A stretch of DNA of 37,392 bases, from assembly GCA_023413275.1 (NCBI GenBank), contig JAEZPX010000010.1, forward strand, positions 1 through 37,392, read 5' to 3'. Below, in pieces: positions 5,441 to 22,544 of this stretch. The first letter of the stretch is position 1. Each line of letters starts with the position of its first letter. The position numbers and the translations under genes were made by a program. Origin of the DNA: Bacillota bacterium. Lineage in GTDB: Bacteria > Bacillota > Clostridia > Lachnospirales > Anaerotignaceae. Under the pieces are notes generated by a model. That model was not told the DNA's origin. It did no database searches and saw only the letters and a program-made list of their open reading frames with translations.

Positions 5441-5914
5441 GCTATCATCCTTTCTGTTTTTAATATCAAACTTTTTTTGAGCTATATAAATTGGAGGAAG
5501 TGGATTGTTCCTTCAAAAGGCCCTACTGTACAAATTTTTGCTTAGAAGGATTGGTCATATTCTTATCTGAATGATAGAAAAATATTCCTAAAATACAAAA
5601 AAACGGTATAATTATGATGAAAATTCGAATATTTCTGCATCATATTTGATTATTTTGTTTGAGAGGGGCTTGTGGTAAGCGTACATATCATTTTCCCTAT
5701 GGAAGAATAAATGAACCCATATTAGTGCTGGTACTTCCTAAATCCAGGCTTTGCCTGTTTCAGTTTGTAAGGCAAGACATCCCTATAAATCACTTTATAA
5801 CAAAAAAATCGTCAAAATCTATGAATATTATACCATATTATCCAAAAAACGCAAAAAAAAATAAATGGTAACTTTTCCCTATGTAAGAAATCAATTAAGA
5901 CGGTAAAACAAATA

Positions 5915-6006: not shown

Positions 6007-6423
6007 TTAATCAAGGTAAGGGCTTTTGGTTTTTCCATTCTGCTCCAAAACGGTGGTGGGAATTGTTCTAATTTTAAAAATAAAATAGTAATACTTGAAT
6101 AAAATCAAAAAAACAATAAAACCTCTGCCGTAGGTATTTCGCATCATAAGAAAAGCAAGTATAAGCATACAAGATACAGGAATTAAGATACAGAGTTTAG
6201 TTTTTAATGTCATTGAACGATTCTTTTCAAAGCTTTCCAAGTTGTTTTTATAAAGTTTGGTTGATTTAAACCATCTGTTGAAACGTTCTGAGCCCTTTGC
6301 GAAGCAAAACGATGCCAAAAGCAAAAAGGGGGTTGTGGGCAGAAGGGGAACAACAACACCAACTGCGCCAATGCCAAAACATAAAAAACCCAAACCAATA
6401 TATATGTACTTCAGATTAATCAT
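6007..6423 (-). CDS. ybaN: DUF454 (YbaN-like) inner-membrane protein
   Basis: 138 aa. The N-terminal GIGAVGVVVPLLPTTPFLLLASFCFAKGSERF signature is recalled as typical of the DUF454/YbaN family. Multiple TM helices. The start overlaps the upstream stop in an ATGA arrangement. Confidence 0.6.
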   Translation of the reverse strand: MINLKYIYIGLGFLCFGIGAVGVVVPLLPTTPFLLLASFCFAKGSERFNRWFKSTKLYKNNLESFEKNRSMTLKTKLCILIPVSCMLILAFLMMRNTYGRGFIVFLILFKYYYFIFKIRTIPTTVLEQNGKTKSPYLD

Positions 6424-6737
6424 CTCCTTAAAATTTTAGAATGGATCAAATGACTTAGGGCGGCAAAGGGATGGTATAAAAGCATCCTTGGACCAGAGAA
6501 AATCATTACTTCCTTTATTTTATCACGCATGGAAGGGTTGTAGCAATGTACAGTACAACTACTGCAAAAGGTCTTTGTTTCCAGAAATGGACACTGCTCA
6601 ATTCTTTGATAGGCATAGGAAAGAAGATTATTACAATCTTCACACAAACTTACTGATGTTTTATGTTTTTTAACACAGAACAATTTGATCATGAAAAGGA
6701 CCATTTGTTTTTCTTTATTACTTTTGAAATGATTCAT
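6420..6737 (-). CDS. ygbA: YgbA-like 'nitrous-oxide-stimulated promoter' family small Cys-rich protein
   Basis: 105 aa with clustered cysteines (CEDC ... CPFLETKTFCSSCTVHC), matching the size and Cys pattern I recall for the YgbA_NO family. Translationally coupled to ybaN (ATGA overlap). Confidence 0.5.
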   Translation of the reverse strand: MNHFKSNKEKQMVLFMIKLFCVKKHKTSVSLCEDCNNLLSYAYQRIEQCPFLETKTFCSSCTVHCYNPSMRDKIKEVMIFSGPRMLLYHPFAALSHLIHSKILRR

Positions 6738-6863
6738 AGCATTCTAGGAAGCAGAGTTGTGAAAAAAGCAACAGAAATATTTATTTCACTTTTTCTAAAC
6801 CCCTCTAATAAAATCCAGTGCTTTTTCAATTATATTGATATTTGGAAACTGCAATCTGCAATC

Positions 6864-8516
6864 CTAGCTGAGTCGCCCCCTTTCGGCTGAATAAATTTTT
6901 GAAGCAATACCTAAAGTTGATTTTCTATGGGAAACCAAAAGGATTGTGACATTTTCGGCTTCATAAAGAGATTTTAAAATAATTCCCTCATTTAAACTAT
7001 CAAGATTACTGGTGGGTTCATCCAAAAGCATAAAAGGTGCCCCTGAGAGAAATGCTCTCGCCAGACCAATGCGTTGTTTTTCCCCACCCGAAAGCTTATC
7101 CCCCAATTCTCCGATGGAGGTTTCATAACCCTTAGGAAGTGTTTCCACAAATTCATGGAGGGAGGCCTTTTTTGCAGCCGCTATTATTTCCTCTTCGGTG
7201 GAATTAGCTTTTGCAAGGCGAATATTATTTCCAATGGTATCATGAAAGAGGTATGTTTCCTGTGTACAGTAGCTTTCGCTGTTACGCAGAGACTTGGTAT
7301 TGATTTCTTCTATCTCGGTACCGGAAAGAGTGATGCTTCCAGAATTTTTATCCCAAAAACGCATAAGCAATTTTAGTAGGGTGGATTTTCCACAACCACT
7401 TTTTCCGTGAATTCCAATAATGCGTCCATTTGGTATGTCAATGGAGAGATTTTCTAATATTTTTTCTTCGTTGTAACCAAAGGTTAAGTTTTGGCATTGG
7501 GCGTTTTGAAAGACAATGTTTTGACCATCTGTTTTTTCTAGAACTTCAGGGGTTTCCTCCAAAAGGGAAAGAACACGTTCTCCGCTTGCCAGGGTATGGG
7601 CTAGATTATTGGAGAGATTACTTAAAGCAACAACAGGTCCAAAGGAGCTCATTAGGGCTACTGTCGATAGTAAGGCCTTTTCAAACGAAAGAATCCCATT
7701 AGAAAATAGCGTCATTGACGAAAACAGCATGATTGCTGTAAATGCAAGGATTGTGATTTCCGTGATTGCTTTTGTAAAGCCTTCCGCTTCTTTTAGTTTC
7801 TTCTGCTTTTCAGACAAGCCATTTGTTAGGTCATTGATTTCATTCAGGCGCGTAATAGTATGATCATATTGTATAAGCTCATCTAGACCACGTAGGCTTT
7901 CCAAAAAGGAAGAATTTAGATTGCCAACAGTATTGCGATACTCCATCCCATAGGCTTTTATTTTTTTCCCATTTAAAATGGGGATGACAGCACCAATGCA
8001 AATATAGGAGATTGCGGCGATGACCCCAAGCATGAGGGAAAAGCTGCCAATAAAAAATACAAAAAGTAGAGAGGTAATTACGCCGATTGCAATTGGTGAA
8101 ATGGTATGGGCATAAAAAACCTCTAACAGTTCAATATCTTCTGTGATAATAGAAATCAGATTTCCTTTGTTTCTTCCTTCCAGCTTTGCTGGACATAGGC
8201 GGCGCAATGTAGAAAATACTTTATCCCGTATAATGGCTAATAGCTTAAAAGCAATGTAGTGATTACAACTTTGTTCACCGTAGCGAAAAAAACCACGTAA
8301 TACAGCGAAAAGAATCAGCAGGGTGAAAATGGTATTTAGGCTGAAATAAACTTCGAAGCCAAGGAGTTTCAGTGCTGCACTTGTTCCTAGAATGGTTAAG
8401 GAAATAGAGCAGAGAAAGCCAAGTACCCCTAAAAAGATTGCCAAGAGCATGAAGTGAAGCAGAGGCCGAATAAGCCCAATGAGACCAGCCATAATTTTAA
8501 TCCCGCTTCTACGCAT
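6864..8516 (-). CDS. cydC: ABC exporter, fused TMD-NBD, CydC-like (thiol reductant exporter subunit)
   Basis: Six-TM N-terminal domain followed by Walker A GKSGCGKST, signature LSGGEKQRIGLARA and Walker B FMLLDEPTS. Paired directly with a CydD-like gene. Start chosen at ATG 8514-8516 (SD AAGGGTGG 8 nt upstream, 2 nt after the cydD stop). In-frame alternatives are 8537 and 8576. Confidence 0.75.
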   Translation of the reverse strand: MRRSGIKIMAGLIGLIRPLLHFMLLAIFLGVLGFLCSISLTILGTSAALKLLGFEVYFSLNTIFTLLILFAVLRGFFRYGEQSCNHYIAFKLLAIIRDKVFSTLRRLCPAKLEGRNKGNLISIITEDIELLEVFYAHTISPIAIGVITSLLFVFFIGSFSLMLGVIAAISYICIGAVIPILNGKKIKAYGMEYRNTVGNLNSSFLESLRGLDELIQYDHTITRLNEINDLTNGLSEKQKKLKEAEGFTKAITEITILAFTAIMLFSSMTLFSNGILSFEKALLSTVALMSSFGPVVALSNLSNNLAHTLASGERVLSLLEETPEVLEKTDGQNIVFQNAQCQNLTFGYNEEKILENLSIDIPNGRIIGIHGKSGCGKSTLLKLLMRFWDKNSGSITLSGTEIEEINTKSLRNSESYCTQETYLFHDTIGNNIRLAKANSTEEEIIAAAKKASLHEFVETLPKGYETSIGELGDKLSGGEKQRIGLARAFLSGAPFMLLDEPTSNLDSLNEGIILKSLYEAENVTILLVSHRKSTLGIASKIYSAERGRLS

Positions 8517-10248
8517 ATTGAGCACCACCCTTCCCATATTCCTCCAGGTTTTTCTGCTGATTGAACAGTTGGGCATAGAGAGAATGGGTTTCCATTAGTG
8601 CATGATGGTTGCCATTTTGGAGAATGCGCCCTTCATCCAAAACATAAATACAATTGGCATTTACAACATTGGCAAGGCGATGAGAGATTAAAATCACTGT
8701 TTTTGTTTTTGTCAGCTGCTCAATTGCTTTCATGATATAGGCTTCACTCTCTGCATCAATGTTTGAAGTGGCTTCATCAAAGATATATATTGGAGTATTG
8801 TGAAGCAATGCCCGTGCCAAAGCCAGACGTTGCCTCTGACCGCCAGATAGATTGCTTCCTTGTTCAGCAATAGGAGTTTCTAGCCCTTTCTCATTTTGAA
8901 TAAAGTCTAAGAAATTGACACGGTGGAGAACTGAATAAAGCTCTTCATCTGTTGCTTCTGGGTTTGCCATTCTTAAATTATAAGCAATTGTTCCTTGAAA
9001 CAGATAGCTGTTATGGTTCACGAAAGTAATGTTTTCCATCAGGCTTTTTTCACTTAGTGTTTTTAACTCGATTCCACCAATTTGAATACTACCCATATAA
9101 TCCTTTAAAGCACCTTTCAAAAGCCCTGCCAATGTAGATTTACCACAGCCGCTTTTACCCACCAACGAAATAAAGGTGTTCTTGGGTATTTTTAAAGAGA
9201 TATTCTGAAGAATTTTTTTTTCATTATCATATTGAAAGGATACATCTTCCAAAAGAATATCAAGACCCTCAACTTTTGCATTACCCTTTTCAGAAACGGG
9301 GGTGTCTAAAATTGCAAATATTTTGTCTGCGGCTGTCATCCCATTCATTGCGATATGAAAGAAAGAGCCCAAAAGTCTGAGGGGAATAAAAAATTCTGCG
9401 GATAGAAAAATCATTGCCATTGTTTGAAATAAGCCAATATTACCATGGGAAAATTCTAAAACAGCAAGAAGAATTCCCATTGCTGCACCACCATAGGCAA
9501 CCAAATCCATTACGGAGATTGAGTTTAGCTGCATGGAGAGGACTTTCATTGTAATTTTGCGAAAAGTTTCTGCATTCCCATTCATCTCTTTTTGTTTCAT
9601 CTCGTCCGCTTGATATATTTTCAAAGTAGTCATTCCCTGTAAGTTTTCTAAAAAAGAATCTCCCAAGTCAGTGTATGCAGTCCAGTATTTGCTTAATAAT
9701 TTTTTTGCAAACTTTTGAACAGCAATAATCGAAAGAGGAATAAAAGGAACACATAGAAGCAGAACAACAGATGCTTTGAAACAGATGGTGGAGAGAACAA
9801 AAAACAAGGTAATTGGAGCAATCAGGCTATAAAAAAGTTGAGGCAAATATTGCGAAAAATAAGTCTCAAGCTGATTTACCCCTTCGGTGCACATTTGCAC
9901 AACCTCTGCTGTGGATATTTTATTCTTATAGCTAGTGCCAATGTGGGTAAGTTTTGTATAAATCTTTTCTCTCAAAAGGCTTTTCACATTTTTTGAAGAT
10001 TGAAAGGCGGTTTTTGAAGAGAATATACTGGCAAAAAAACGAAGGATACCAAAAAATATTATTATAACACCTGTTCTCTGTGCCAAGGCCATATCGAAAG
10101 TTCTATTTTGATAGGTTGAATCTATTAAAACGCAAATGGAAAGCATGATAAAAATATTGCAAATCAGACTAAACCATTGTAAAAGAACTGTTGCCACAAT
10201 ATATTTTTTTATATTTGGGGCAAGTTCCAAAAGACGCCTGTGAAACAT
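8509..10248 (-). CDS. cydD: ABC exporter, fused TMD-NBD, CydD-like
   Basis: 579 aa. TMD followed by Walker A GKSGCGKST, signature LSGGQRQRLALARAL and Walker B IYIFDEATS. Strong SD AGGAGGG 6 nt upstream of the ATG at 10248. Confidence 0.75.
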   Translation of the reverse strand: MFHRRLLELAPNIKKYIVATVLLQWFSLICNIFIMLSICVLIDSTYQNRTFDMALAQRTGVIIIFFGILRFFASIFSSKTAFQSSKNVKSLLREKIYTKLTHIGTSYKNKISTAEVVQMCTEGVNQLETYFSQYLPQLFYSLIAPITLFFVLSTICFKASVVLLLCVPFIPLSIIAVQKFAKKLLSKYWTAYTDLGDSFLENLQGMTTLKIYQADEMKQKEMNGNAETFRKITMKVLSMQLNSISVMDLVAYGGAAMGILLAVLEFSHGNIGLFQTMAMIFLSAEFFIPLRLLGSFFHIAMNGMTAADKIFAILDTPVSEKGNAKVEGLDILLEDVSFQYDNEKKILQNISLKIPKNTFISLVGKSGCGKSTLAGLLKGALKDYMGSIQIGGIELKTLSEKSLMENITFVNHNSYLFQGTIAYNLRMANPEATDEELYSVLHRVNFLDFIQNEKGLETPIAEQGSNLSGGQRQRLALARALLHNTPIYIFDEATSNIDAESEAYIMKAIEQLTKTKTVILISHRLANVVNANCIYVLDEGRILQNGNHHALMETHSLYAQLFNQQKNLEEYGKGGAQYA

Positions 10249-10391
10249 AAAAAAGCCCTCCTAAATAAAAAGTAGATACGCTAGTTTGTGCGTACTTCTT
10301 AAAATTTAAACGGGCGAGGTTTATGGCAAGACTATAGCATATTCATAGTTTGATGTCAATTTAAAAAAGGATGATTTTGCTTTGAGAGGTG

Positions 10392-10420
10392 TTGACAAAA
10401 GAAACAAGGAATGTTATTTT
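10392..10420 (+). promoter_or_regulatory. Candidate sigma-A promoter for the DtxR-like regulator gene
   Basis: TTGACA (10392-10397), 17-nt spacer, TATTTT (10415-10420). The -10 is weak. Confidence 0.3.
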
Positions 10421-10567
10421 CAAAACATAAATAGTTAGCATAGGAAAACTTTTGAAAAATAAGAAATAGTCTTAAAAGTTTGCAAGTGATTAATAAATTT
10501 TGAAGGTTTAGCTGTCACCAAATGAAGGTGTAAGAAATGAAAATAACAAAAAGAGAGGAGATTGAAA

Positions 10568-11311
10568 ATGAAAGAAACAACGGTTTTAGATGGTTTTACA
10601 GAAGCGCAACTCAAGTATATTTTAATCATAAGTGCACTGCAGGATTCCTACGCCACGCTGACTGGAATTGCGGAGAATTTGGGTGTGAAAAAGCCCAGTG
10701 CTTGTCGGATGATTTACCAACTAAAAGATATGGGTGTACTAAAAACAGATGAAAGCAACCGATTTAAAAAAGTTTTTTTAACTCAATTTGGCAATAGTAT
10801 TGCGGCAATGCTGGAGCACCAGCAATATATGATATACAGACTGTTAATCCAGCAATTAGGGACAGACCCAGAGACGGCTCAGCGTCAGGCTGAGAAGCTT
10901 CTTGGGAAGCTAGAGCCAGAGGTGGTGTCTCTTTTGGAGGTAAAATTTAATGAGTTTTGTGAAGAGGATGGTTTACGTGAAGAAACCTATGATGCAAAGC
11001 AATGGGAGAGTCCGGGCGATGGCAGTTATTTCATTCCTTTTAAAATTTTAAAGGCGGATAGTGATATGATTTCCATGGGGAATAAAGGATTTGAACATCC
11101 TTGTATTTTGGTGTTAAATAACGAAAAACAAGAGGTAGTATTAAAATCAAGGGATATATTTTACAAATCTATTTTAGGAAAATGCCTTTATGGAAAATTA
11201 AGCTCTATGAAGTTTAAAAATAGGGAGACAGATACATATCAACTTGCGGAGTGTACCCATTCTATATACAGATTACCGTTAAGTGAAATGAAATGCAAAT
11301 ATGATTCTTAA
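10568..11311 (+). CDS. DtxR/MntR-family (iron-dependent-repressor fold) transcriptional regulator with an additional ~120-aa C-terminal domain of unknown function
   Basis: The N-terminal 125 aa align by eye with DtxR: HTH TGIAENLGVKKPSACRMIYQLKDMGVL ~ [27 protein letters not shown], and dimerisation helices TQFGNSIAAMLEHQQYMIYRLL ~ [22 protein letters not shown]. Most DtxR metal ligands (E83, H98, C102, E105, H106) are not conserved. The track ORF begins at TTG 10562. The ATG at 10568 with SD AGAGGAG 8 nt upstream is preferred. Confidence 0.6.
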   Translation: MKETTVLDGFTEAQLKYILIISALQDSYATLTGIAENLGVKKPSACRMIYQLKDMGVLKTDESNRFKKVFLTQFGNSIAAMLEHQQYMIYRLLIQQLGTDPETAQRQAEKLLGKLEPEVVSLLEVKFNEFCEEDGLREETYDAKQWESPGDGSYFIPFKILKADSDMISMGNKGFEHPCILVLNNEKQEVVLKSRDIFYKSILGKCLYGKLSSMKFKNRETDTYQLAECTHSIYRLPLSEMKCKYDS

Positions 11312-11534
11312 GGAAAAATCGTGACTGGTGTAATCAGAATTATGGCAAGAGCAACTGTGGGCGTTTTTCATATGGCAGAAGCAAAAGCTGATTTGGTACT
11401 TGACTTAACAGCTATTGAAATAAACAGTAGATAGAACATGTAACTTGGTAAAATGTGCATCTATTTTTACGAGTTTAGAGTTTCATTTACATAAAAAAAC
11501 TGGCAAATTCATAGGAAAAAATTTGAAAATAGGT

Positions 11535-11563
11535 TTGACAACAATCTTTAGGTGTGATATAGT
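11535..11563 (+). promoter_or_regulatory. Sigma-A-type promoter (TTGACA-17-TATAGT) for the heme-uptake operon leader
   Basis: TTGACA 11535-11540, exactly 17 nt, TATAGT 11558-11563. GTG at -15 gives partial extended -10 character. Confidence 0.5.
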
Positions 11564-11573
11564 TTACCTGTAA

Positions 11574-11589
11574 GTTAGTTATAACTAAC
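11574..11589 (+). promoter_or_regulatory. Perfect 16-bp palindrome GTTAGTTA.TAACTAAC at about +5 to +20 of the promoter; candidate repressor operator, loosely DtxR iron-box-like
   Basis: GTTAGTTATAACTAAC is its own reverse complement. It sits immediately downstream of the -10. The half-site resembles the DtxR/IdeR box TTAGGTTAGCCTAACCTAA. Confidence 0.4.
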
Positions 11590-11677
11590 AAATTGGAATA
11601 TCATGCTTACACATTGATGAAAAACGGGCGAGGTTTTACATCAAGTATAACATTGTTGCCATAAAAAACGTAATTTT

Positions 11678-11716
11678 CAAGGAATGACCTTTGTGTCGTT
11701 CCTTGTACTATTTTTA
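11678..11716 (+). terminator. Intrinsic-terminator-like hairpin inside the operon leader (attenuator, or 3' end of a ~145-nt leader RNA)
   Basis: 11-bp stem CAAGGAATGAC / GTCGTTCCTTG (one U.G pair), 6-nt loop, followed by UACUAUUUUUAC. It lies ~110 nt downstream of the predicted TSS and ~355 nt upstream of the first start codon. Confidence 0.4.
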
Positions 11717-12070
11717 CGGGAAATTAGCCTAGTCTAATGCTTGATGGCCTAGGGAAATAAAAGTAGGTATGATAAACTTACAAATGCAGTAAGCGAGCGG
11801 ATTTTGTATGACACATGAAAGTTAGCTAGTGCTAACAAAAAAGTTTGCGTACGAAAATCAAGTTGTAGATTGTTTATAATGGCCGAAGTGAACCCTGTTG
11901 AAACAATTCAAGTACTTCGGTTTGATTATAAAAATAGAATATAAAGGAGGTATAAAAGAAAAAAACAGAAAAAATCGTATCAAACCAGAGCAACAAAGCA
12001 AAAACCGGTTTTTGCCCCAAAAAGGGCAGTAAGATAACTTAATATTTACTTATAAAAGGGAGGAATAGTT

Positions 12071-12565
12071 ATGAGAAATTTATTAAAGAAAATTACAGGT
12101 TTGGGTATGGCAACAATGATGGCTTTGAGCATGGGAGTGGTAGCGTTTGCCCAAGAGGCACCCGGATATGTGACGTTCTTCAAAAGTGGCAGCAGTACTG
12201 CAGTTTCAATGACACAAAAAGCTCTTGCTGACTATTCCAGCAAGGTTCAGGTAGGTGACAACTATGTTTACACCATCAATCTACAAACCTTTGAAATGAC
12301 AAAAATGGGGGTATCGGGCGAGGGCTATATGACAGGTATTACATTAGGCTCCACAGCCAAGAATGCAGGTATTACTGCCTCAGTAACCAATGGCGGGGAC
12401 ACGTTAATTGTATCTGTTCCAACAAATCTTGTAATCAACGGTAATTCTGCCAAATATGATGCAAAGATAGAAGCACAGGTCGAACTATTATGGGGAATCA
12501 AATTTGATATGCCTTCATCAGTAAATTTAGCTATTACAGATTCACAATTGACATATTCTGAATAA
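12071..12565 (+). CDS. Small secreted single-NEAT-domain protein (IsdX1-like hemophore candidate)
   Basis: Signal peptide MRNLLKKITGLGMATMMALSMGVVAFA. VSMTQKALADYSSKVQVGDNYVYTINLQT matches the NEAT lip/strand pattern (S-x-M ... KV-x5-N-x2-Y-x3-L, cf. IsdA [26 protein letters not shown]). C-terminal AKYDAKIEAQVEL matches the NEAT Y-x3-Y/LEF strand, with Y-x3-I here. SD GGGAGG lies 8 nt upstream. Confidence 0.5.
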   Translation: MRNLLKKITGLGMATMMALSMGVVAFAQEAPGYVTFFKSGSSTAVSMTQKALADYSSKVQVGDNYVYTINLQTFEMTKMGVSGEGYMTGITLGSTAKNAGITASVTNGGDTLIVSVPTNLVINGNSAKYDAKIEAQVELLWGIKFDMPSSVNLAITDSQLTYSE

Positions 12566-12595
12566 CTAATGCATCCTTTTCACTAAATTATTTTG

Positions 12596-12625
12596 AGAGC
12601 CGAAGGCTTAGCGGCTTTTGGCTCT
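12596..12625 (+). terminator. Hairpin after the NEAT hemophore gene (partial terminator / processing site)
   Basis: AGAGCCGAAGGC / GCTTTTGGCTCT 12-bp stem (2 G.U), followed by a T-rich but interrupted tract ATTATTTATTATATA. Confidence 0.35.
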
Positions 12626-12726
12626 ATTATTTATTATATATTGAAATACTTAAAGCAAGGTATTCGTAAGGAACTTATTGTTAAAAAAGTTCTTGAGGAA
12701 ACTCAATATAGGGGGAGTGAACCAAA

Positions 12727-15700
12727 TTGAAATATAAAAAGTATTTGACAATGTTTTTGGCGGGTACATTGGTAATTTCATCATCGCCGACGAAAATTTT
12801 TGCAGATTCAAACGAACAACAGGTTGAACAGCAGGATGGTTCTGGGGAAAAAGATACTGACATATCAGTAGTAGAAAAAACAGATGAAGGGGAATTCGGT
12901 AAAACCGAGACTAAAGCAGAATCAGAGGGCGTAGAGACAGGTGAGGAAGACAGCGGGGAACTAGAAACGGGGGATACAGAAACTAATGAAGCAGAAACAA
13001 GCAATACAGAAACAGGTAATTCAGAAATTGTCGAGAAAGAAACTGGAGAAATAGAAGCGGGAAACACAGAAACAGGCAACCCAGAGAATGAGGAAACAGG
13101 GGAAACACAAACAACAGAAGGTGCGGAAAATACGGAGGAATCCGAAAATATAAAAGAGGGCGAGGAAGCCCCTATACAAGCGAGTGTGCTTGATGCAAGT
13201 TTAGTATCCAGTACTGATACTGTAGAGGCACCGGCTATTACAGCTCGTGATGACAATGATATCAGTCAAACCTACTATGCAAATAATGCTACAGTAAAGG
13301 TTGAGATAGCAGTACCCGAGGATACCCAGGTATATTATACAATAGACGGTACAGACCCAACAGAGAGTGGAACGAGACAGCTTTATAGTGGGGCATTTAT
13401 TTTGACTGCATCGGGCACAGAGGCAGAAGCGTTGACAATAAAAGCTGTTGCTACCCAGGAGGTAACGGGAGGAGAAAACACCACAACGCAATATTCAGAA
13501 CTGATTACTAAGGAGATATGCTTTATTGCAGAAGTTGATGTGTCGGAACCTGTGATCAAAACATGTGACAGCAGCGGAGATTCTCAGGACAGCTATTCTT
13601 ATTTGTCGCCAGTAACGGTTGAGATTGATGCACCTTTTAATACAGAGGTATTGTTTACAACAGATGGTACTGACCCAATTCAAAGTGACACAAAACAGCT
13701 TTATAAAGGTTCGTTTACAGTTTCACTTCCTATGGCACAATATACGTCGGGAGGAACAACTGAAATAAAAGCGGTGGTAAAAACAGGGGTTGAGTGTGGC
13801 AATGGAGAAATGATCTATGTTTATTCTGATTTAGTGAGTAGTTCCATTGTATTTCGAGCTGCGACAACATTAAAGAACCCGACAATAAAAGCTACGCAGA
13901 AAATAAGCGGTGCAGTTACAACAACATCATCACTGCAGAAGAGTATTTCTAATATAGCTAACAATGAAACGGTTGAGATTGAGATCACCCATCCAAACGA
14001 TGCTTCAAGTAGAATATTGTATACCTTAGATGATACCGATCCAAGGGAGAGCGATACAGCATTAGTTTATACGGATGAATTTTCAATAACTGCTAGCGGT
14101 CTAGCAGCTGAGGCTGTGGTTGTTAGAGTCACTGTTGAAGTAATGGATGGTACACAAAAAACATATACCTCTCCCAGAAAACTTACTCTGAATTTTTTGC
14201 AGGAAGAGATTGCTGCACCTGAGCTTTCTTTCACCCCTTTGGAAAATGGTGAATCAAAATATAAGAATACGGCAGAGGTTACTGCCAATATTACAAATTA
14301 TGATGCACAGCTGGGATATGTTTATACCCTTGATGGAACAGATCCAACCTTGGAAAGCAACGCTTATGATAACAGCATAGGAATTGCGGGAATTAAAGCT
14401 CCTTCCCAGGCAGGAGGTAAGGTAACCATTAAGGTTGCGTCTGTGAAAGAAGGTAAATATTTATCTTCTATAACCACTAAAGAAATTTATTTTAAATCAA
14501 ATGAGGATTTGATACTAACGCAAGGGAATTATATAGCTGATTTTGTAATAAAATGCAATGATGGAAATAATGCATGGTTGAAGGATTACATAGACACCAA
14601 GGATGTTGAGATTAATTTAGATAGTGACGGTAAAATGAGCCTTACAATACGTTTTGTTGAGAAGACAACCGATAATGTGGGAGTTGAAGCTTACAAGTTC
14701 AAGTCCGCAAAAATAGTGAGTTATGAGGGAGAAGAAACAGAACTTGCTTTTGAAGAACCAACTGAGATAAATTCTTATTTGTATAGTTCAAACAGCACTT
14801 ATGTCATAAAAACGGTTACGCTACCTATGGAATCCCTATCCGCTGATGTTCCGGTGCAATTTGAAAATAACAGTGGTGTATGGGTGGATTTTGTTCTTAC
14901 CCTAAATTCGCAGCCAAAGCCAGCATCAGAAAGAAAAATAGATAATTCTGTTATGGGTTACTCTATCATTGCCGGTTCTCAAAATTTAACTTACGATGGT
15001 TATAGACAATATAAAAACCCCATTACAATTACTTTAGACAGCAAGGGATATTCGGTAACAAGACCTATGGTGTATTATTTTACCACAGATGATACAGAGG
15101 AGATAGGTTTGGAATCCAGATCAATGAATTTACCTGTTGTAAATTCTTTATCGGTTGCTACAAATTACGAAGGGGCCGTTGAGGATGCATATGAAATATT
15201 TACCAAGAACAAAGATCCTCATGCTCTTAATATAAGAGTTAAAGGTTATGTTGAAGGTTTAGGTTGGACAGACGAAATTTCTATTCCCTTAAAGTTCAAT
15301 GCAAGGGCTTTGTCAAGTGAAATTGTAGATGCCAATGGAACGGGTACAAAGATGACGACAACAGGAACGTTTCATGATGGGAAAAGCGACTTAGGATATA
15401 CCATTCCGTATGATACAGCTTTTAAAGTAGACACCGAAGAGGATAAAACGAAGATAGAGATTTATTCTAACTTGATTTCACAGGTAAATGCGGAACATGG
15501 CAGTAGCAAAAAAAAGGTGCTAAATATTACTTTGGCAACACCTAGCGGTGGACAAGTGAAAGTTTTGGATGCTTTTGGAGAATTTAAAGAGTCTTTTCTA
15601 AGTATTCCACAAACCGAAGGGTTTTCTGTAGAAGCGGTTTCAGTGTATCACATCAATAAATCCGGAACGGAAGCCATACTGCTTCCTCGTTACGCTGGAA

Positions 15701-18700
15701 GTAACGAAATGGGCTATGGTATGTATAGAATAACAAATGAATATCCCGATGGGGTTTATGTGTTGGTTGCAGGAGAGAATGCTGACATGCCCGCTCTGGC
15801 AAACGGATACTATTATGCAACTGCAAGACTAAAAGACAGTAATAATAAGTTTGAAGCCAATGAATATGCGGATATGATAGACAACAAGTATCAGCAGGGA
15901 TATGCAATGCTTGACATTAGAACTTATTCAAAATATTTGTATCTTCCCCTTGCTAACAAAAATGGGGAGTATGTAAAGGAATTTTATTACTATGATTATA
16001 CAAAGAATGAATATGTGAAAGCAGCGGCTGAGGAAACCTATACAGTGAACGGTGAAAAATATGTAAAACTCGCTAAAATGCCCATAACTACAAAAAAGGC
16101 TTACTTAAATGTATATTTTACAACCTCAGCAGGAAAAAACCAATACGGAATCATGGAAATGGATTATAGCAGTGTTAGTTCAGCAACAGGGATACCTACC
16201 CAAGCGCCGAAAATGACAACTGCAACAGGGGCCACCTCTTATGTGAATGATGGTGAGGCCGTCGTATCTCTAGCCACTGCATCGGAAAATGCAAAGATTT
16301 ACTATACCTGTACCAGTGGAAATACAGGTGTGGATCCTGATACAACAAAGGCAAGCCAAATTTATAAGAATACCTTTGAATTATCCACAGAAAACAAAGA
16401 AGGAGAGATATTTACCATTCGTGCGGTTACGGTGAAAAGTGGATATATCACCTCAGACATGATGGAATTTAAGATTTCCTTTCACAAAGAGGGGATGGCT
16501 GCAATAACCGCAGAAAAACCTACTATTTTTGCAAAATACAAAAGTGGGGATACAGCTACAAATGGTATTTACACTGTGAACATATCAAATGCAACTGATG
16601 AAACATCGGTTTATTATACTACGGATGGTTCTCTGCCTTCGGAACAAAATGGAGCATTATATACAACAAGCTTTGAGGTGCCTGCCCTTACCAATGGTAC
16701 CCCCACAGTCATTCAGGCTATTGCTGTAGGCGCTAATGTTAATGCTTCTGAGATTGCAAAGAAAACCATTGTGTTTTCATCAAATTGGTGGGATAACATG
16801 GAGCCAGGTTATGGCTATGAAGTGCAGATTAAGATGTTGAATTTTGCCAATAATAGCCTTCTATCCATGGGAAATGGAGCATTAACGGGCAAGGCGGTCT
16901 TAACGGTGGATTCAGAGGGCAACCACTTTTTAACAGTGCCTTTTCAGGGCATTAATATGGGTGCCGGTTTGGGTTACTTGATAGATATGTGGTATTTTGA
17001 GAATGAAGATGCAACAGGAGAAGATATATGGAAAGATACAAGGATACAAGGTACCTATACATATTCCGTCTCAGGCAAGATTGCAACGGTAACCATACCT
17101 TTATTTAACAATCATTCCAAGGTGTCTGTTGGGATTGAATCGGATTTTCAAGCCATGGGTAAGCAAAGGGCTACTTTATCTTTGGATTATTCCAAGGTCA
17201 TAGAAGCTGTTACAGGCGATGTTGTTGTGGTGGAAAAGCAAGTTGAGTCACCTATCATTGATGGAGTCTTAAATGCAAAAGGCGATGCCATGACAATTAG
17301 CATTGCTTTGCCATCAGCCAGTGAAGTGAAGGATGCTGACATTTACTATATTGTTAGTGGAAAAGATGATGCCGTTGTTGATAAGATAACTAAAAACAAG
17401 TATACTGGGGCATTTACAATTAGTAAATCTGAGGCGGCTGCGTTTGGGGGGATAGATGATACAGTAAATGTACTTGCAGTGGCCGTAAAGAACGGATACA
17501 TTGATTCTCTTATCAATGTGAAAAAGTTCACTTTTAATACATCAGCTATAGATCCTACCAAGCCGATTGAGGGGGAAGTTGATGTTACAAAGGATGGAAA
17601 ATATTGGGTATATGTAAGCCTTTATAAAGCCAATGATAATGAGCTTTCTATGGGCAATGTAGCATTTGAGAATAATTCCAAGGCTCTTATTGTAACAAGT
17701 GGTGGAAAGTCAGTGATGCAGATGGGTTCAAATCCTGTTAAGATTCCTCCTTATTATTCGGCTCTACAAGAGTTTCAGTTTAAAAATGCTGGAGGAACAT
17801 ATCAGCTTGCCACGGCTTTGGACACAAAGGAGATCAAAACAACCTATAACGGTGTTAACTATTCCTTTGATTATTTGAAAAAGTTTGAATTTACCTTACC
17901 AAGTGTTACAGATAGTTTTATAGATGTAAAGGTGAAGGTACCCTATACCATTATGGATTCTGCAGTGGGGGATAATGCAATTCCAGCAAGACTGAAAATT
18001 GATTGGAGCGGTATTACTGCCGCCAAGGATTCTGATGAGCTTCGTGCCAGTGATTCTGTAGCGGAAAGTACAATTACCATTAAGAGTAGCCCTATTGATG
18101 CAACAGACCCTAAAACTGGAATCCGACTTGTGGCTCCGGCTGATATTTTAATGGAAGGTACAACGCTTGCCGCCGCAGAAATCAAGACGGGTGTCCAGTT
18201 TAAGCTGGTTCAGAAAGCCATCGGGGATGAATTTACAAAGTTTACTGCATTTAGCATCCTTGCAATGCTGGATGAAAAAGAAACAACACCATTAGGAAAT
18301 GTAAAAATCTATATTCCCATTCCTGAGGGCTTTGATGAACAAAGGGTTGCTTTATACAGAGTAAATGAGGATGGAACAAAAACACTAGTTCGTGGAACTG
18401 TGAATCATGGTGGATTAATTCCTGTGGCAAGTGGAGGGGAACCAATTTATTTTGAATTTGAAACTGACAAACTTGGCTTATTTGTGATAGTTGAAACGGA
18501 TGAGGTTTTAAATGTTCCTGTTGTTGCCGAGGTGGTTGAAGAAAAAGAGTTGTTTGATGATATTTCTGGGCACTGGGCTAAGGAATATATTAAAAAAGCT
18601 GTTGAAATGGGGATTTTCCTTGGGACTAGCGAATCAAACTTTGAACCTAATGTAAAAATGACAAGAGGGATGTTTGTCACAGTTCTAGGAAAAATGGAAG

Positions 18701-19125
18701 GAATCACTTCAAAAACCTATAGAGGAGAAAAATTCAATGACGTTAAGGATGGGGATTATTATTCATCCTTTGTGCTTTGGGCATCTGATACGGGTATTGC
18801 AAGGGGGATTGATGAGAATCATTTTGCTCCTAACGAAACAATTACCAGAGAGCAGGTGGCTGCTATGCTTTCAAAGTATGCCCAGATGAAAGGGCTAGAG
18901 CTGAAAAGTGACAGAAATCACGACTTTGCTGATGGTACTGACGTCAGTGATTGGGCAAAGGATAGTGTAGAGGCTCTTGCAAAGGCAGGTGTTCTCAGTG
19001 GACGTGAGAATAGAACCTTTGCACCAAAGGATTCTGCTTCCAGAGCGGAAGTAGCAGTTATTCTTGTGAAGTTTATGGAGGAATATATGCCTTCTGAGAA
19101 CACGCTGGAGACGGAAAAAATCTAA
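12727..19125 (+). CDS. Giant (2132-aa) SLH-anchored cell-surface protein with three NEAT domains and about seven chitobiase/Big-like (CHB_HEX_C-type) repeats; IsdX2/BslK-like heme or hemoprotein receptor
   Basis: TTG start with SD AGGGGGAG 7 nt upstream. Signal peptide MKYKKYLTMFLAGTLVISSSPTKIFA. An acidic E/T/G-rich tandem-repeat region spans about nt 12850-13150. Repeats of the form vYYTtDGTDPt.S...Y...F start at about 13285, 13600, 13970, 14270, 16250, 16560 and 17290. NEAT-like domains at about 14505-14920, 16786-17200 (LSMGNGALTGKAVL) and 17596-18010 (LSMGNVAF ... NYSFDYLKKFEF). Three SLH domains at about 18550-19110 (HWAKEYI ... MTRGMFVTVL ...). Confidence 0.85.
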   Translation: MKYKKYLTMFLAGTLVISSSPTKIFADSNEQQVEQQDGSGEKDTDISVVEKTDEGEFGKTETKAESEGVETGEEDSGELETGDTETNEAETSNTETGNSEIVEKETGEIEAGNTETGNPENEETGETQTTEGAENTEESENIKEGEEAPIQASVLDASLVSSTDTVEAPAITARDDNDISQTYYANNATVKVEIAVPEDTQVYYTIDGTDPTESGTRQLYSGAFILTASGTEAEALTIKAVATQEVTGGENTTTQYSELITKEICFIAEVDVSEPVIKTCDSSGDSQDSYSYLSPVTVEIDAPFNTEVLFTTDGTDPIQSDTKQLYKGSFTVSLPMAQYTSGGTTEIKAVVKTGVECGNGEMIYVYSDLVSSSIVFRAATTLKNPTIKATQKISGAVTTTSSLQKSISNIANNETVEIEITHPNDASSRILYTLDDTDPRESDTALVYTDEFSITASGLAAEAVVVRVTVEVMDGTQKTYTSPRKLTLNFLQEEIAAPELSFTPLENGESKYKNTAEVTANITNYDAQLGYVYTLDGTDPTLESNAYDNSIGIAGIKAPSQAGGKVTIKVASVKEGKYLSSITTKEIYFKSNEDLILTQGNYIADFVIKCNDGNNAWLKDYIDTKDVEINLDSDGKMSLTIRFVEKTTDNVGVEAYKFKSAKIVSYEGEETELAFEEPTEINSYLYSSNSTYVIKTVTLPMESLSADVPVQFENNSGVWVDFVLTLNSQPKPASERKIDNSVMGYSIIAGSQNLTYDGYRQYKNPITITLDSKGYSVTRPMVYYFTTDDTEEIGLESRSMNLPVVNSLSVATNYEGAVEDAYEIFTKNKDPHALNIRVKGYVEGLGWTDEISIPLKFNARALSSEIVDANGTGTKMTTTGTFHDGKSDLGYTIPYDTAFKVDTEEDKTKIEIYSNLISQVNAEHGSSKKKVLNITLATPSGGQVKVLDAFGEFKESFLSIPQTEGFSVEAVSVYHINKSGTEAILLPRYAGSNEMGYGMYRITNEYPDGVYVLVAGENADMPALANGYYYATARLKDSNNKFEANEYADMIDNKYQQGYAMLDIRTYSKYLYLPLANKNGEYVKEFYYYDYTKNEYVKAAAEETYTVNGEKYVKLAKMPITTKKAYLNVYFTTSAGKNQYGIMEMDYSSVSSATGIPTQAPKMTTATGATSYVNDGEAVVSLATASENAKIYYTCTSGNTGVDPDTTKASQIYKNTFELSTENKEGEIFTIRAVTVKSGYITSDMMEFKISFHKEGMAAITAEKPTIFAKYKSGDTATNGIYTVNISNATDETSVYYTTDGSLPSEQNGALYTTSFEVPALTNGTPTVIQAIAVGANVNASEIAKKTIVFSSNWWDNMEPGYGYEVQIKMLNFANNSLLSMGNGALTGKAVLTVDSEGNHFLTVPFQGINMGAGLGYLIDMWYFENEDATGEDIWKDTRIQGTYTYSVSGKIATVTIPLFNNHSKVSVGIESDFQAMGKQRATLSLDYSKVIEAVTGDVVVVEKQVESPIIDGVLNAKGDAMTISIALPSASEVKDADIYYIVSGKDDAVVDKITKNKYTGAFTISKSEAAAFGGIDDTVNVLAVAVKNGYIDSLINVKKFTFNTSAIDPTKPIEGEVDVTKDGKYWVYVSLYKANDNELSMGNVAFENNSKALIVTSGGKSVMQMGSNPVKIPPYYSALQEFQFKNAGGTYQLATALDTKEIKTTYNGVNYSFDYLKKFEFTLPSVTDSFIDVKVKVPYTIMDSAVGDNAIPARLKIDWSGITAAKDSDELRASDSVAESTITIKSSPIDATDPKTGIRLVAPADILMEGTTLAAAEIKTGVQFKLVQKAIGDEFTKFTAFSILAMLDEKETTPLGNVKIYIPIPEGFDEQRVALYRVNEDGTKTLVRGTVNHGGLIPVASGGEPIYFEFETDKLGLFVIVETDEVLNVPVVAEVVEEKELFDDISGHWAKEYIKKAVEMGIFLGTSESNFEPNVKMTRGMFVTVLGKMEGITSKTYRGEKFNDVKDGDYYSSFVLWASDTGIARGIDENHFAPNETITREQVAAMLSKYAQMKGLELKSDRNHDFADGTDVSDWAKDSVEALAKAGVLSGRENRTFAPKDSASRAEVAVILVKFMEEYMPSENTLETEKI
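12850..13150 (+). repeat. Imperfect tandem DNA and peptide repeats encoding an acidic ETG(N)TE low-complexity spacer at the N-terminus of the giant protein
   Basis: Repeated GAAACAGG(C/T)AA(T/C)ACAGAAACAGG-like units. Protein ETGEEDSGELETGDTETNEAETSNTETGNSE.... The antisense frame gives a spurious S/V/P-rich ORF (12681..13256). Confidence 0.6.
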
Positions 19126-19221
19126 AAAATGTGGTGTTTTGTCCTCTTTTGTTTCACACAATAAAATAGACAGTGCCCTCCCTTTGGGGGGGCTGTCTGC
19201 CAATACGAGCGGAGGTAAAAA

Positions 19222-20313
19222 ATGAAGAGAATAGGTTTGAAAAGAATAACTTCTATCATAATGGCCGTAATTTTTTGCAACTGTATGCAGCTAAACGTAT
19301 TCGCCTTAAGTGATGGTATTTATACGGCGGATACACTTACCTATTATATCAATCCTGATACAGGAAAGACTGATGACGGCGGAACGGGGAACGCAGAAAT
19401 CGGCGAGGGAATGTGCAGAAGTGCTGTATATGAAAAGGCATTGGTTGAGCAACAAGATGGAAAGATATGGGTAAGTTTAAGAATGCTTTTATACAGCCAT
19501 ATATCTAATATCAAAATCTATACCCAGAATACACCAAAAGGAGAGTACACGGAGGTCAAGTATTCTGTTATGGCGGAGAACTCCACAAATGATAGTGGAG
19601 ATATGCGCTTTGAGGTGCCTTCAGCAGATTGCTTTGTGAAAACAAAAATGTATGTTGCACCAATGGGCAGAGATGTCTGTTTTTATTGGAAGATAGATGT
19701 AGCAACAGCCCAAAATGGAAATGGTGATTTTGTTAAAACAATTAAATTGGGAACAAAAACAACAAAGCAAGAGGAATTTACAGATGTTACTTCCCACTGG
19801 GCCAAAGCTGATATTGAGAGTGTCGTTTCAAAGAAACTCTTCAGTGGAACAAGCGATTCTACCTTTAGCCCTGATACTGCAATGACAAGAGGAATGTTTG
19901 TAACCGTATTAGGCAGATTGAGCGGAGATGATGTTTCTAAATACAACAGCGGAAAATTTCGGGATGTAGGTGTAAATCAGTATTATGCAAAATATATTGG
20001 ATGGGCAAATGCAAAGGGAATTGTTTCCGGTGTGACAGAGACAACATTTCAGGCTGATTCACCAGTGGCGTGCGAACAGGCTACGGCAATTTTGGTAAAG
20101 TATATGGAATACAAGGGAATTCCCTTTAAAACTAACGGTTCTGTGGCAAAAATGGATACAGTGAGTTCTTGGGCGAAGAAGAGCGTGGAAAAGGCAGGAC
20201 TGGCAGGGATAATTTCAAGTCAAAATACAAATGGATTTCAATTTAAATCCTCAGCCACCAGAGCTGATGTGGCATCTATGGTTATGAATATGATTAACGG
20301 AGCTGAAAAATAG
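19222..20313 (+). CDS. SLH-anchored surface protein with an N-terminal divergent NEAT-like domain and three C-terminal SLH domains (BslK-like)
   Basis: Signal peptide MKRIGLKRITSIIMAVIFCNCMQLNVFA. The N-terminal ~140 aa (IGEGMCRSAVYEKALVEQQDGKIWVSL ... TKMYVAPMGRDVCFYWKIDV) align loosely to the NEAT lip and final strands. SLH repeats: FTDVTSHWAKADIESVV ... AMTRGMFVTVLGRL, then two more. SD GGAGGT lies 7 nt upstream. Confidence 0.7.
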   Translation: MKRIGLKRITSIIMAVIFCNCMQLNVFALSDGIYTADTLTYYINPDTGKTDDGGTGNAEIGEGMCRSAVYEKALVEQQDGKIWVSLRMLLYSHISNIKIYTQNTPKGEYTEVKYSVMAENSTNDSGDMRFEVPSADCFVKTKMYVAPMGRDVCFYWKIDVATAQNGNGDFVKTIKLGTKTTKQEEFTDVTSHWAKADIESVVSKKLFSGTSDSTFSPDTAMTRGMFVTVLGRLSGDDVSKYNSGKFRDVGVNQYYAKYIGWANAKGIVSGVTETTFQADSPVACEQATAILVKYMEYKGIPFKTNGSVAKMDTVSSWAKKSVEKAGLAGIISSQNTNGFQFKSSATRADVASMVMNMINGAEK

Positions 20314-20476
20314 AGCAGTTTTTAAGCTAAAACAAATACCAGGGTGATGGAGAATAGGGACTATGAACGAATTTATGAAGTTTAGAAAAAACGAATGTTC
20401 AGGACAATTACAAATCGGTTTTTAATCCTAAACTTCCAAGCACAACAGCTTGAAATGTTGGGGAAAGGGGAAGAAC

Positions 20477-21556
20477 ATGAAAAGATTGAAGCAAAGGATG
20501 CTAATTCTAATCCTTGGACTTATGATGTTTTCTGCTACAGCTTGTGTGGATCAAAGCGGAGCGAATGCAGAAGAAACGAAGACAGTTACAAAAACAATGT
20601 CAGCGGAAATTGTAGCAGGAAAACAGATAGAAGAAAACACAGAAAAAGAGACCGAAACTAGTAAAGAGGACGATGAGAAACAGAGCGCAGATGGTTCACT
20701 GGATGTGAAAACAGAACAGACCAAGAAATTAGATGCCAAGACTCAGACGCAGGCTGGTAACAAGAAACCTGAGACGGAAGAAGTACGTATTATTGCAACA
20801 TCGGCAGCAACCTGCGAGATAATGAGCCGATTGGGGATTGAATTAATTGGTGTGCCAAATACCACTGTTTCTACAATTCCCTCTCGATATGACAATGCAA
20901 CTCGCATTGGTACGCCTATGGCTCCGGATTTGGAAATCATCAAATCTTTGAATCCTACTGATGTAATAGGACCGGATACGCTAAAAGAGGATTTAAAAAT
21001 AAAATACGATAACATTGGGGTTACAGCTACATTTATCGATTTAAAAAGCGTGAAAGGTTTATATGACAGCATAACTTTGATAGGGAATAAGTATGGGAAA
21101 GCAGAAGAGGCAAAGGCCTTGGTTGAGGACTACAATACCTTCATAAAGGATTATACGTCAAAGCATGTAGTGACAGAAAAACCTAAGGTACTGGTACTTA
21201 TGGGCCTTCCCGGCAGTTATCTTGTGGCGACAAATAAATCTTATGCAGGGTCGTTGGTAGAGCTTGCTGGAGGGGTGAATGTATTTTCCAGTAATGAGAA
21301 GGATTTTCTTAATGTGAACCCAGAAGAAATTTTAAAGACAGATCCTGATATTATCATTCGCACAGCCCATGGACTGCCGAAAGAAGCACTAAAAATGTTT
21401 GCAAAGGAATTTTCAGAAAATGATATTTGGAAGCATTTTAGAGCGGTGCAGGATGGAAAGGTTTTCGATGTGGACTATATGGTTTTTGGCATGAGTGCAA
21501 CCTTTGACTATCCTCAAGCCCTTTCTGATTTAGAGCCTATGCTTTTTGGTGAATGA
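20477..21556 (+). CDS. isdE: Heme-binding substrate-binding lipoprotein, IsdE/HmuT-like (TroA/FecB-type class III SBP)
   Basis: Lipoprotein signal MKRLKQRMLILILGLMMFSATAC. From memory, a strong match to S. aureus IsdE: KPKVLVLMGLPGSYLVATNKSYAGSLVELAGG ~ HPKVLILMGVPGSYLVATDKSYIGDLVKIAGG, and NDIWKHFRAVQDGKVFDV ~ NDIWKHFKAVKNNHVYDL. IsdE heme ligands are conserved (IGTPMAP Met, TAHGLP His). Start moved from the track's 20450 to ATG 20477 (SD AAGGGGAAG). Confidence 0.75.
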   Translation: MKRLKQRMLILILGLMMFSATACVDQSGANAEETKTVTKTMSAEIVAGKQIEENTEKETETSKEDDEKQSADGSLDVKTEQTKKLDAKTQTQAGNKKPETEEVRIIATSAATCEIMSRLGIELIGVPNTTVSTIPSRYDNATRIGTPMAPDLEIIKSLNPTDVIGPDTLKEDLKIKYDNIGVTATFIDLKSVKGLYDSITLIGNKYGKAEEAKALVEDYNTFIKDYTSKHVVTEKPKVLVLMGLPGSYLVATNKSYAGSLVELAGGVNVFSSNEKDFLNVNPEEILKTDPDIIIRTAHGLPKEALKMFAKEFSENDIWKHFRAVQDGKVFDVDYMVFGMSATFDYPQALSDLEPMLFGE

Positions 21557-21557
21557 A

Positions 21558-22544
21558 ATGAGAAAAAGAAAAATATCTGCTTTTTTTATACTGACAATTT
21601 TGCTTTTTGGACTTTTTATGATGTCGGTCAACTTGGGAAGCATCAAGGTTACTTATGGAGAACTTTTCAGGGGGTTATTTATAGAATATAACGAAAATGT
21701 AGCGACCATTTATGATTTAAGATTTCCTAGAATTATAATTGCGATGGTGACGGGGGCCGGACTGGCAGTTTCCGGAGTGCTTTTTCAGGCAGTGCTGAAA
21801 AACCCATTGGCAGACCCAGGTATTATTGGCATTTCCGCAGGGTCAGCCTTTGTTTCTGTATTAATTGTGGCCTTTTTCCCTATGTGGTACTTTTTTACGC
21901 CGTTATTTTCTTTTCTGGGAGGAATCCTTGCTTGTGTATTGGTATATTCTCTTTCTTGGAAAGCGGGGTTTTCGCCCCTTAGAATTATTTTGGTGGGTGT
22001 CGCTATAAATGCAGTATTTACGGGACTCATGGAATCCTTTGGATCAATGAGTGGGCAAAATTATTCCGGTGCTGCTGCAATTGTGAATGCAAATATCTCC
22101 ATGAAAACATGGAAGGATGTACGCCTATTGACAGGATATGTTACCCTAGGACTTATTCTTGCCTTATTTGCAGCCACAAGGTGCAATCTTCTTGCCCTAG
22201 AGGATAAAACCATTCGGAGCCTTGGGGTGAATGTGAATGCTTTAAGAGCGGTTATTTCTATAATTGCCGTACTGCTTGCTTCAATTACTACGGCAGTTGC
22301 CGGTTCGATTAGTTTTATAGGATTAATTGTCCCACATATTGGCAGGCTTATGGTAGGGAGCGACCATAAATATTTAATCCCTTTTTCAATGCTTTTTGGA
22401 GCTTTTACCATGCTTTTGGCGGACACGGTGGGTCGTTTAATTGCCTATCCTTATGAAATTTCTGCTGCGATTATTATGTCGGTCATAGGCGGGCCGTTCT
22501 TTATTGTATTGCTGAAAAGGAGTGACAGGACCTATGGAGGTTAG
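21558..22544 (+). CDS. FecCD-family ABC permease (IsdF-like heme permease)
   Basis: About 9 TM segments with typical FecCD motifs (RIIIAMVTGAGLAVSGVLFQ ... LVGVAINAVFTG ... FIGLIVPHIGRL). ATG at 21558 lies 2 nt after the SBP stop. The track's TTG 21546 is less likely. Confidence 0.8.
   Translation: MRKRKISAFFILTILLFGLFMMSVNLGSIKVTYGELFRGLFIEYNENVATIYDLRFPRIIIAMVTGAGLAVSGVLFQAVLKNPLADPGIIGISAGSAFVSVLIVAFFPMWYFFTPLFSFLGGILACVLVYSLSWKAGFSPLRIILVGVAINAVFTGLMESFGSMSGQNYSGAAAIVNANISMKTWKDVRLLTGYVTLGLILALFAATRCNLLALEDKTIRSLGVNVNALRAVISIIAVLLASITTAVAGSISFIGLIVPHIGRLMVGSDHKYLIPFSMLFGAFTMLLADTVGRLIAYPYEISAAIIMSVIGGPFFIVLLKRSDRTYGG

Follow-up and report, generated by a model that had tools for sequence, protein, structure and literature searches.

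Regulators of the DtxR family bind metal through well-defined ligands, namely M10, H79, E83, H98, C102, E105 and H106 in DtxR and D8, E11, H77, E99, E102 and H103 in MntR. In Streptococcus pyogenes, the DtxR-family protein MtsR controls the shr-shp-htsABC (sia) heme-uptake operon. NEAT domains are the textbook extracellular heme chaperones of Gram-positive pathogens; for some of them, IsdH-N1 and IsdB-N1 among these, the ligand is a protein and not heme. The one-component heme sensors HrtR, PefR, HsmR and FhtR are released from DNA by heme. In the 2025 structures of Shr NEAT1, Met390 and Met475 are the heme ligands and a propionate is bonded by Ser389 (PMC12796733), and according to the Shr authors the same bis-Met chemistry is found in Shp (PMC12796733). 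NEAT reviews and surveys deal with surface or secreted proteins only. The literature that we searched, with most subscription journals outside its scope, gave no precedent for a DtxR-NEAT regulator or for a cytoplasmic NEAT regulator.

The window analysed here is a stretch of 37,392 nucleotides from an Anaerotignaceae bacterium, and the regulator ORF lies at 10568-11311 on the plus strand. It starts with the ATG at 10568, has a GGAG ribosome-binding site on its 5' side and ends with the TAA at 11309-11311. The 247 codons give a product of 247 aa, which is short for a family of 288 aa. Residues 1-127 (10568-10948, plus strand) make up a DtxR/MntR-fold winged helix-turn-helix and a helical dimerisation domain. 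Pfam places the DtxR DNA-binding domain (PF01325) at residues 11-60 with 28.0 bits, above the gathering cutoff of 26, and the dimerisation domain (PF02742) matches weakly at residues 72-125, where the helical fold of that family is present after the winged helix. The MntR models of NCBIfam match the regulator as well, and a sequence search of the PDB matched E. coli MntR with an E value of 2.5e-5. Within the family, PF01325 is matched by 34 of 112 members at E<0.01. The DtxR/MntR helix-turn-helix and dimerisation helices that an earlier sequence-only reading had recognised by eye are thereby confirmed by profile search.

To locate the metal sites, DtxR, IdeR and B. subtilis MntR were aligned to the family profile; the IdeR reference sequence was consistent with the one returned among the family-profile matches. 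All seven DtxR ligand positions are replaced in the window protein, with M10 becoming K16, H79 becoming Q86, E83 becoming Y90, H98 becoming Q105, C102 becoming E109, E105 becoming L112 and H106 becoming G113. E109 is the sole replacement able to ligate, and most of the wider family has R, L or I at this position. Across the 112 members the ligand columns are variable and mostly non-liganding, and in this alignment the DtxR metal sites have been lost in the whole family. The earlier reading was right that the sites are degenerate, and the loss extends to all seven. It went astray in keeping the H84 of LEHQQ as the equivalent of H79, since H84 stands two residues before that column, which holds Q86. 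Where it read Y, Q, A, G and K at the positions of E83, H98, C102, E105 and H106, the Y and Q are correct and the A, G and K are shifted by one.

What follows the DtxR-like module is a NEAT-like sensor domain, of which the window ORF retains the N-terminal two-thirds, residues 150-247 with strands β1 to β6 (11015-11308, plus strand). The Pfam NEAT model (PF05031) aligns with residues 151-193 at an E value of 2e-4 and 22.1 bits, below its gathering cutoff of 32.8, and it is matched by 53 of the 112 family members at E<0.01, the best of them reaching 2e-8. The IsdC and IsdX2 NEAT models of NCBIfam fall on the same C-terminal stretch. The PDB sequence search matched the anthrax hemophore IsdX1 (E 3.5e-4), and the family profile matched IsdX2-N5 with an E value of 2e-8 over the first half of the domain only; the second half gave no sequence alignment to solved NEAT domains. 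An AlphaFold model was made for the full-length homolog P0001, the 288-aa protein of A. propionicum. The alignment of 112 sequences resulted in a pLDDT of 91.2, whereas the alignment of the 15 close homologs alone gave 52.8 and was unusable. The full-length family model contains the eight-stranded β-sandwich of the NEAT fold, a Foldseek search with it agrees with both domain assignments, identifying the C-terminal domain as NEAT, and PefR and HsmR are among the fold neighbours. On the predicted structure both assignments are secure, and the C-terminal domain is not SH3-like. The pTM of 0.63 leaves the relative placement of the two domains uncertain, and no allosteric path can therefore be proposed. 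The family architecture is a DtxR/MntR-type module with a cytoplasmic NEAT domain replacing the SH3-like tail. An extra C-terminal domain unlike the usual DtxR tail had been noticed from the letters, and it is real, matching NEAT by sequence and by fold; its identity had been missed. Its length of about 120 aa had been underestimated, as the domain in the family spans about 140-160 aa and the window ORF stops prematurely.

On the lip of the NEAT domain, S169 is present in 112 of 112 family members and M170 in 107 of 112. Their codons occupy 11072-11077 on the plus strand, and the pair aligns with the lip of known NEAT domains, EISMMN in IsdX2-N5, SSRMN in IsdX1 and SSMQN in Hbp2-N2. In the P0001 model a predicted short helix at 170-174 holds the lip region. 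S169 is the proposed hydrogen-bond donor to a heme propionate, and M170 the proposed first axial ligand. The YxxxY heme motif on β8 was not found in the family, which has (H)MPESxA instead. M269 of this HMPESxA motif (codon 11372-11374, plus strand, 3' of the premature stop) is kept in 107 of the 112 members, lies in a hairpin just before the predicted β8, where canonical NEAT domains carry YxxxY, and is the proposed second axial ligand. From M170 to M269 there are 99 residues. Their placement rests on sequence position and predicted secondary structure, from which M170 and M269 would sit around one pocket; by analogy with Shr, we infer heme binding through S169, M170 and M269. Cysteine-based heme sensing is ruled out. 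The HPC, KC and EC dipeptides singled out in the sequence-only reading are not conserved family-wide, 62 of the 112 members having Ala in place of C179, and the residues stand in the order Pro-Cys as opposed to the Cys-Pro of the heme-regulatory motif. Neither a signal peptide nor an anchor domain (LPXTG, SLH) was found in the regulator, the N-terminus of which is the winged helix-turn-helix itself.

The family is sizeable. A profile search of 1.84 billion cluster representatives (50% identity) at E<=1e-3 returned 227 related representatives; among 150 matches listed of these 227, 110 are 250-310 aa long, and most were matched over nearly the whole length. The named sources are Anaerotignaceae, Lachnospiraceae and Clostridiaceae genomes, and the database labels read 'Mn-dependent DtxR family transcriptional regulator' or 'hypothetical'. 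Conservation was counted over 112 members, the same set as in the AlphaFold alignment. The near-invariant columns are G152, Y154, F158, S169, M170, G174, F175, P178, G209, Y216 and P237, together with M269, P270, E271, S272 and A274, and they fall almost wholly in the NEAT domain. In one member of 414 aa (P0025) the DtxR-like module is followed by two NEAT-like sensor domains in tandem, both of which have their own SM/MPES-type motifs. At distant loci the gene occurs as a tandem pair, in which an upstream paralog of 270-283 aa keeps the metal motif DACRxEH (L014 7141-7983; L016 2972-3808; L017 7182-7994; L018 7134-7985). The tail of this paralog is NEAT-like and lacks the Ser-Met and MPES motifs, and the paralog may be a metal-sensing partner or an evolutionary intermediate. 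Anaerotignaceae have the heme-type copy only, with no tandem paralog.

The presumed target of the regulator is an operon for heme uptake at 12071-23292 on the plus strand, encoding a 164-aa secreted protein, a 2132-aa SLH protein, a Shp/NEAT SLH protein, a binding protein, a FecCD permease and an ABC ATPase. The binding protein is an IsdE equivalog, with 352 bits where the cutoff is 299. On the other side, at 6007-10248 on the minus strand, lie the divergent genes for CydD-like and CydC-like ABC exporter subunits, YgbA_NO and DUF454, which co-occur with the family. The regulator sits between the divergent exporter set and the uptake operon in the window and in every Anaerotignaceae locus with readable flanks other than L010, and in the Anaerotignaceae loci the surface protein has roughly 2130 aa. 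Its position between cydDC and a heme-uptake operon had been read correctly from the window. Members at 22-30% identity also adjoin a giant NEAT/FIVAR protein, Shp, Peripla_BP_2 and FecCD, as well as DUF454, YgbA_NO and an ABC exporter pair. In distant Clostridia (L017 and L018), DUF454 and YgbA_NO, the latter of the 'nitrous oxide-stimulated promoter' family, travel with the exporter and the heme importer, which suggests a role in heme handling for these two uncharacterised families. For the 2132-aa SLH protein (12727-19125) Pfam gives only Fn3_assoc and SLH domains. Two divergent NEAT-like segments in it (residues 1357-1401 and 1622-1661) carry an LSMGN lip like that of the sensor, which suggests that the sensor domain was captured from the very system it would regulate. 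The 164-aa secreted protein of the window gave no match to the sensor-domain profile, whereas its counterparts in distant loci do match it. No other DtxR-type gene was found in the window.

The same region contains a conserved palindrome. A promoter-like site for the heme-uptake operon lies at 11535-11563 on the plus strand (TTGACA-17-TATAGT, 11 of 12 consensus positions, TG-extended), and the operator O1, GTTAGTTATAACTAAC, at 11574-11589 (plus strand) begins 11 bp past the -10 hexamer. The palindrome that the earlier reading had placed at these coordinates does exist and is a conserved operator at the uptake promoter. Two further sites lie in the leader and are kept in relatives, an operator-like site with a TTAG-N6-CTAA core, ATTAGCCTAGTCTAAT, at 11723-11738 (plus strand) and the operator O3, GTTAGCTAGTGCTAAC, with the exact GTTAG-N6-CTAAC at 11821-11836 (plus strand). 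The exact form occurs twice in the window against 0.04 expected, and the three TTAG-N6-CTAA sites of the 37-kb window all fall within 11575-11835. Over seven syntenic loci the GTTAG and CTAAC arms are kept and the 6-bp spacer is variable. With 11 bp between the centres of its half-sites, the site suits a single winged-helix dimer. The regulator gene has a promoter-like site of its own at 10392-10420 (plus strand; TTGACA-17-TATTTT with a TG-extended -10), kept in relatives, and just 3' of it lies a degenerate operator, GTTAGCATAGGAAAAC, at 10434-10449 (plus strand), the left arm of which is invariant across loci. This site is an exact GTTAG-N6-CTAAC in L011 and has one mismatch in L010 and L012; we infer autoregulation through it. 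Among distant loci, L016 has four exact operators and L014 one, and none was found in L017 and L018. The exact site of L014, at 5753-5768, stands about 35 bp 5' of an AhpC/peroxiredoxin gene, so that the regulon may extend to oxidative-stress genes.

Other conserved elements are found around these sites. An identical 15-nt motif, AAACGGGCGAGGTTT, occurs at 10308-10322 and 11622-11636, the first copy just 3' of the exporter promoter and the second some 50 nt inside the leader of the uptake operon. At no more than two mismatches it has three matches, a number reached by 0 of 100 shuffles of the window, and it is invariant in relatives with aligned sequence covering the site. The two copies face opposite ways with respect to transcription, which points to the DNA site of a second factor and not to an RNA element. 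A conserved terminator-like hairpin at 11678-11715, CAAGGAATGAC...GTCGTTCCTTG followed by a T-run, lies between the operators in the 480-nt leader; it may act as an attenuator or represent a leader RNA not yet described. No Rfam family was matched in the window at gathering thresholds, which rules out a cobalamin or other known riboswitch in the leader.

Then, how might a full-length member control uptake? Its NEAT domain would bind heme as in Shr and Shp, with S169 bonding to a propionate and M170 and M269 as axial ligands. The dimer, judging from conservation, would bind GTTAG-N6-CTAAC, with one operator overlapping the start of the uptake-operon transcript, two in the leader and a weaker one at the regulator promoter, so that both the uptake operon and the regulator's own gene would be repressed. 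Heme would be the co-repressor, sufficient heme shutting off uptake in the way of metal-loaded DtxR; this is a guess by analogy, and we lean modestly toward heme as co-repressor rather than inducer. The same protein and operator could also work by the opposite logic, with the heme-free form repressing and heme releasing it from the DNA to induce uptake. Substrate induction would suit the 2132-aa surface protein, which is very costly to make, and release by heme has its precedent in HrtR, PefR, HsmR and FhtR. Those sensors, however, govern efflux or detoxification and not uptake. Feedback repression is the usual control on import when a surplus of the nutrient is toxic, positive feedback on heme import would be risky, and in DtxR-fold regulators the ligand-loaded state is the DNA-binding state. 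We regard induction by heme as a serious minority possibility.

Whether the window copy can act in this way is a separate matter. The close homologs (n=15, 70-93% identity), from Anaerotignum, Anaerotignaceae and Lachnospiraceae assemblies with A. propionicum among them, are all 287-288 aa long, and in their alignment the window protein is matched end to end and followed by 40 further residues. In place of codon 248, the premature TAA at 11309-11311 on the plus strand, seven of the eight related loci carry CAA (Gln) and the eighth carries AAT. Past it, outside the ORF and in frame, a remnant at 11312-11434 (plus strand) holds the last 40 codons, strands β7-β8, and the family stop; translated past the TAA, 11312-11431 gives 40 conserved codons, GKIVTGVIRIMARATVGVFHMAEAKADLVLDLTAIEINSR, and the family stop stands at 11432-11434. 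Compared with A. propionicum the remnant shows 6-7 synonymous and 4-5 non-synonymous differences, and the upstream part 33 versus 22-24. The remnant has diverged like the rest of the gene, which means that the stop is either recent or a sequencing error. A C-to-T change would have turned Gln248 from CAA to TAA, with the loss of β7-β8 and M269. The truncated product, if stable, should keep the DNA-binding half and be heme-blind or misfolded. Stop-codon reassignment or readthrough at 11309 is ruled out, as TAA is an ordinary stop here: it closes 10 of the 22 ORFs in the window, being the commonest genuine stop, and their lengths agree with those of homologs.

A sequencing or assembly error at 11309 in an organism with an intact 288-aa gene would explain why only one C-to-T difference separates the TAA from the CAA that relatives have, why the 40 downstream codons are conserved as well as the remainder of the gene, and why an exact look-up of the 247-aa and 249-aa products found the truncated allele in no other assembly checked. 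A recent nonsense mutation would give the identical picture, and the other ORFs, having the lengths of their homologs, give no sign of poor sequence quality in the window. Past the stop, moreover, the window copy has a change at a subfamily-invariant residue, E273K, which also speaks against an intact gene. We think an error unlikely. The nonsense codon suggests a natural regulator-defective variant, in which the uptake operon of the window may be mis-regulated. For the window copy, sensing by the gene product cannot be assumed, and the family reading is uncertain for it.

Two further explanations concern the ligand and the DNA site. The NEAT-like domain might not bind heme at all, serving as a dimerisation or protein-interaction module or sensing protoporphyrin, a corrinoid, a metal or redox state. 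The missing YxxxY motif and the NEAT Pfam score under the gathering threshold are in its favour, as are the protein-binding precedents IsdH-N1 and IsdB-N1, and the tail of the tandem paralog, NEAT-like without SM and MPES, indicates that the fold can persist without the pocket. Over the 112 diverse members, however, conservation is strongest at the Ser-Met lip and the distal Met, which are the heme-binding residues of Shr; the family is consistently linked to an IsdE- and Shp-type heme importer, and the Rfam search found no riboswitch or B12 signal in the window. A domain that does not bind heme is in our view improbable. That GTTAG-N6-CTAAC is bound by another regulator, for example a metal-sensing DtxR/MntR or Fur homolog, is equally hard to credit: the TTAG/CTAA half-site, which resembles the DtxR box TTAGGTTAGCCTAACCTAA, the extra DtxR-type genes that adjoin the family member at distant loci, including the paralog with the metal motif, and the conserved AAACGGGCGAGGTTT, which shows at least one further factor or element acting at the locus, are set against the joint presence of operator and regulator gene at all Anaerotignaceae loci, with the regulator promoter among the operator positions, a window without a second DtxR-type gene and a half-site spacing compatible with a single winged-helix dimer.

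The preferred reading is that of a one-component heme-sensing repressor, in which a metal-blind DtxR module with a cytoplasmic NEAT domain acts on GTTAG-N6-CTAAC operators and of which the window holds a truncated copy; we consider it reasonably probable. The proposal made from the letters, a repurposed DtxR sensor responding to heme or another ligand through its extra domain, holds for the family, with the NEAT domain, the lost metal sites and the conserved operator on its side, and is uncertain for the truncated copy. With slightly less assurance, and still somewhat better than an even chance, we put forward a wider version, in which a Clostridia-wide cytoplasmic NEAT-DtxR family took its NEAT domain from the heme-uptake operon and uses it as a bis-Met heme sensor to feedback-control Shp/IsdE-type import and perhaps the CydDC-like exporter. 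Gut Clostridia probably switch the heme-uptake operon by direct heme sensing with a DtxR-NEAT fusion. One-component regulators as such are known, and it is the combination of sensor domain and regulator that appears to be new. If the reading is true, coupling a NEAT domain in the cytoplasm to a DNA-binding module would give bacteria a new way of sensing heme, and a metalloregulator scaffold would have been switched from a metal to a metal-porphyrin complex. In the groups where the family occurs, the acquisition of heme and its regulation have hardly been studied. The heme-sensor hypothesis can be put to a direct test, since it names an operator, ligand residues and a target operon, and the DtxR-NEAT module could find use as a compact heme biosensor.

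In function, MtsR of S. pyogenes comes closest. Like MtsR, the regulator would be a DtxR-fold repressor at an uptake operon of the Shp and IsdE/HtsA type, with an operator that overlaps the promoter. The family profile has SloR and ScaR among its best sequence matches. Whereas MtsR, SloR and ScaR sense Mn2+ or Fe2+ via intact ligand sites and have the usual C-terminal domain, the regulator has all seven ligand positions replaced and a NEAT tail, and its signal would be heme. It differs likewise from DtxR, IdeR and MntR in having neither the metal ligands nor the SH3-like domain, and its operator is TTAG-N6-CTAA in contrast to the 19-bp DtxR box. With Shr and Shp the full-length family shares the NEAT β-sandwich and, as a sequence pattern, the Ser-Met lip and a second Met downstream, with no YxxxY; the distance from Ser-Met to the second Met is 85-110 residues in the Shr/Shp type (PMC12796733) and 99 in the family. 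The presumed target operon itself codes for Shp-type and NEAT-like proteins whose lip is likewise LSMGN. Shr and Shp, however, form a secreted, wall- or S-layer-anchored heme relay, whereas the NEAT domain of the regulator lacks a signal peptide and is joined to a DNA-binding module, and it must therefore act in the cytoplasm. The direct heme binding proposed here for a cytoplasmic DNA-binding protein resembles that of HrtR (TetR), PefR and HsmR (MarR), FhtR and HatR. The DNA-binding folds of these sensors are unrelated or distantly related to that of the regulator, they take up heme within their own helical domain and not in an appended NEAT domain, and they govern efflux or detoxification, whereas the presumed target of the regulator is uptake.
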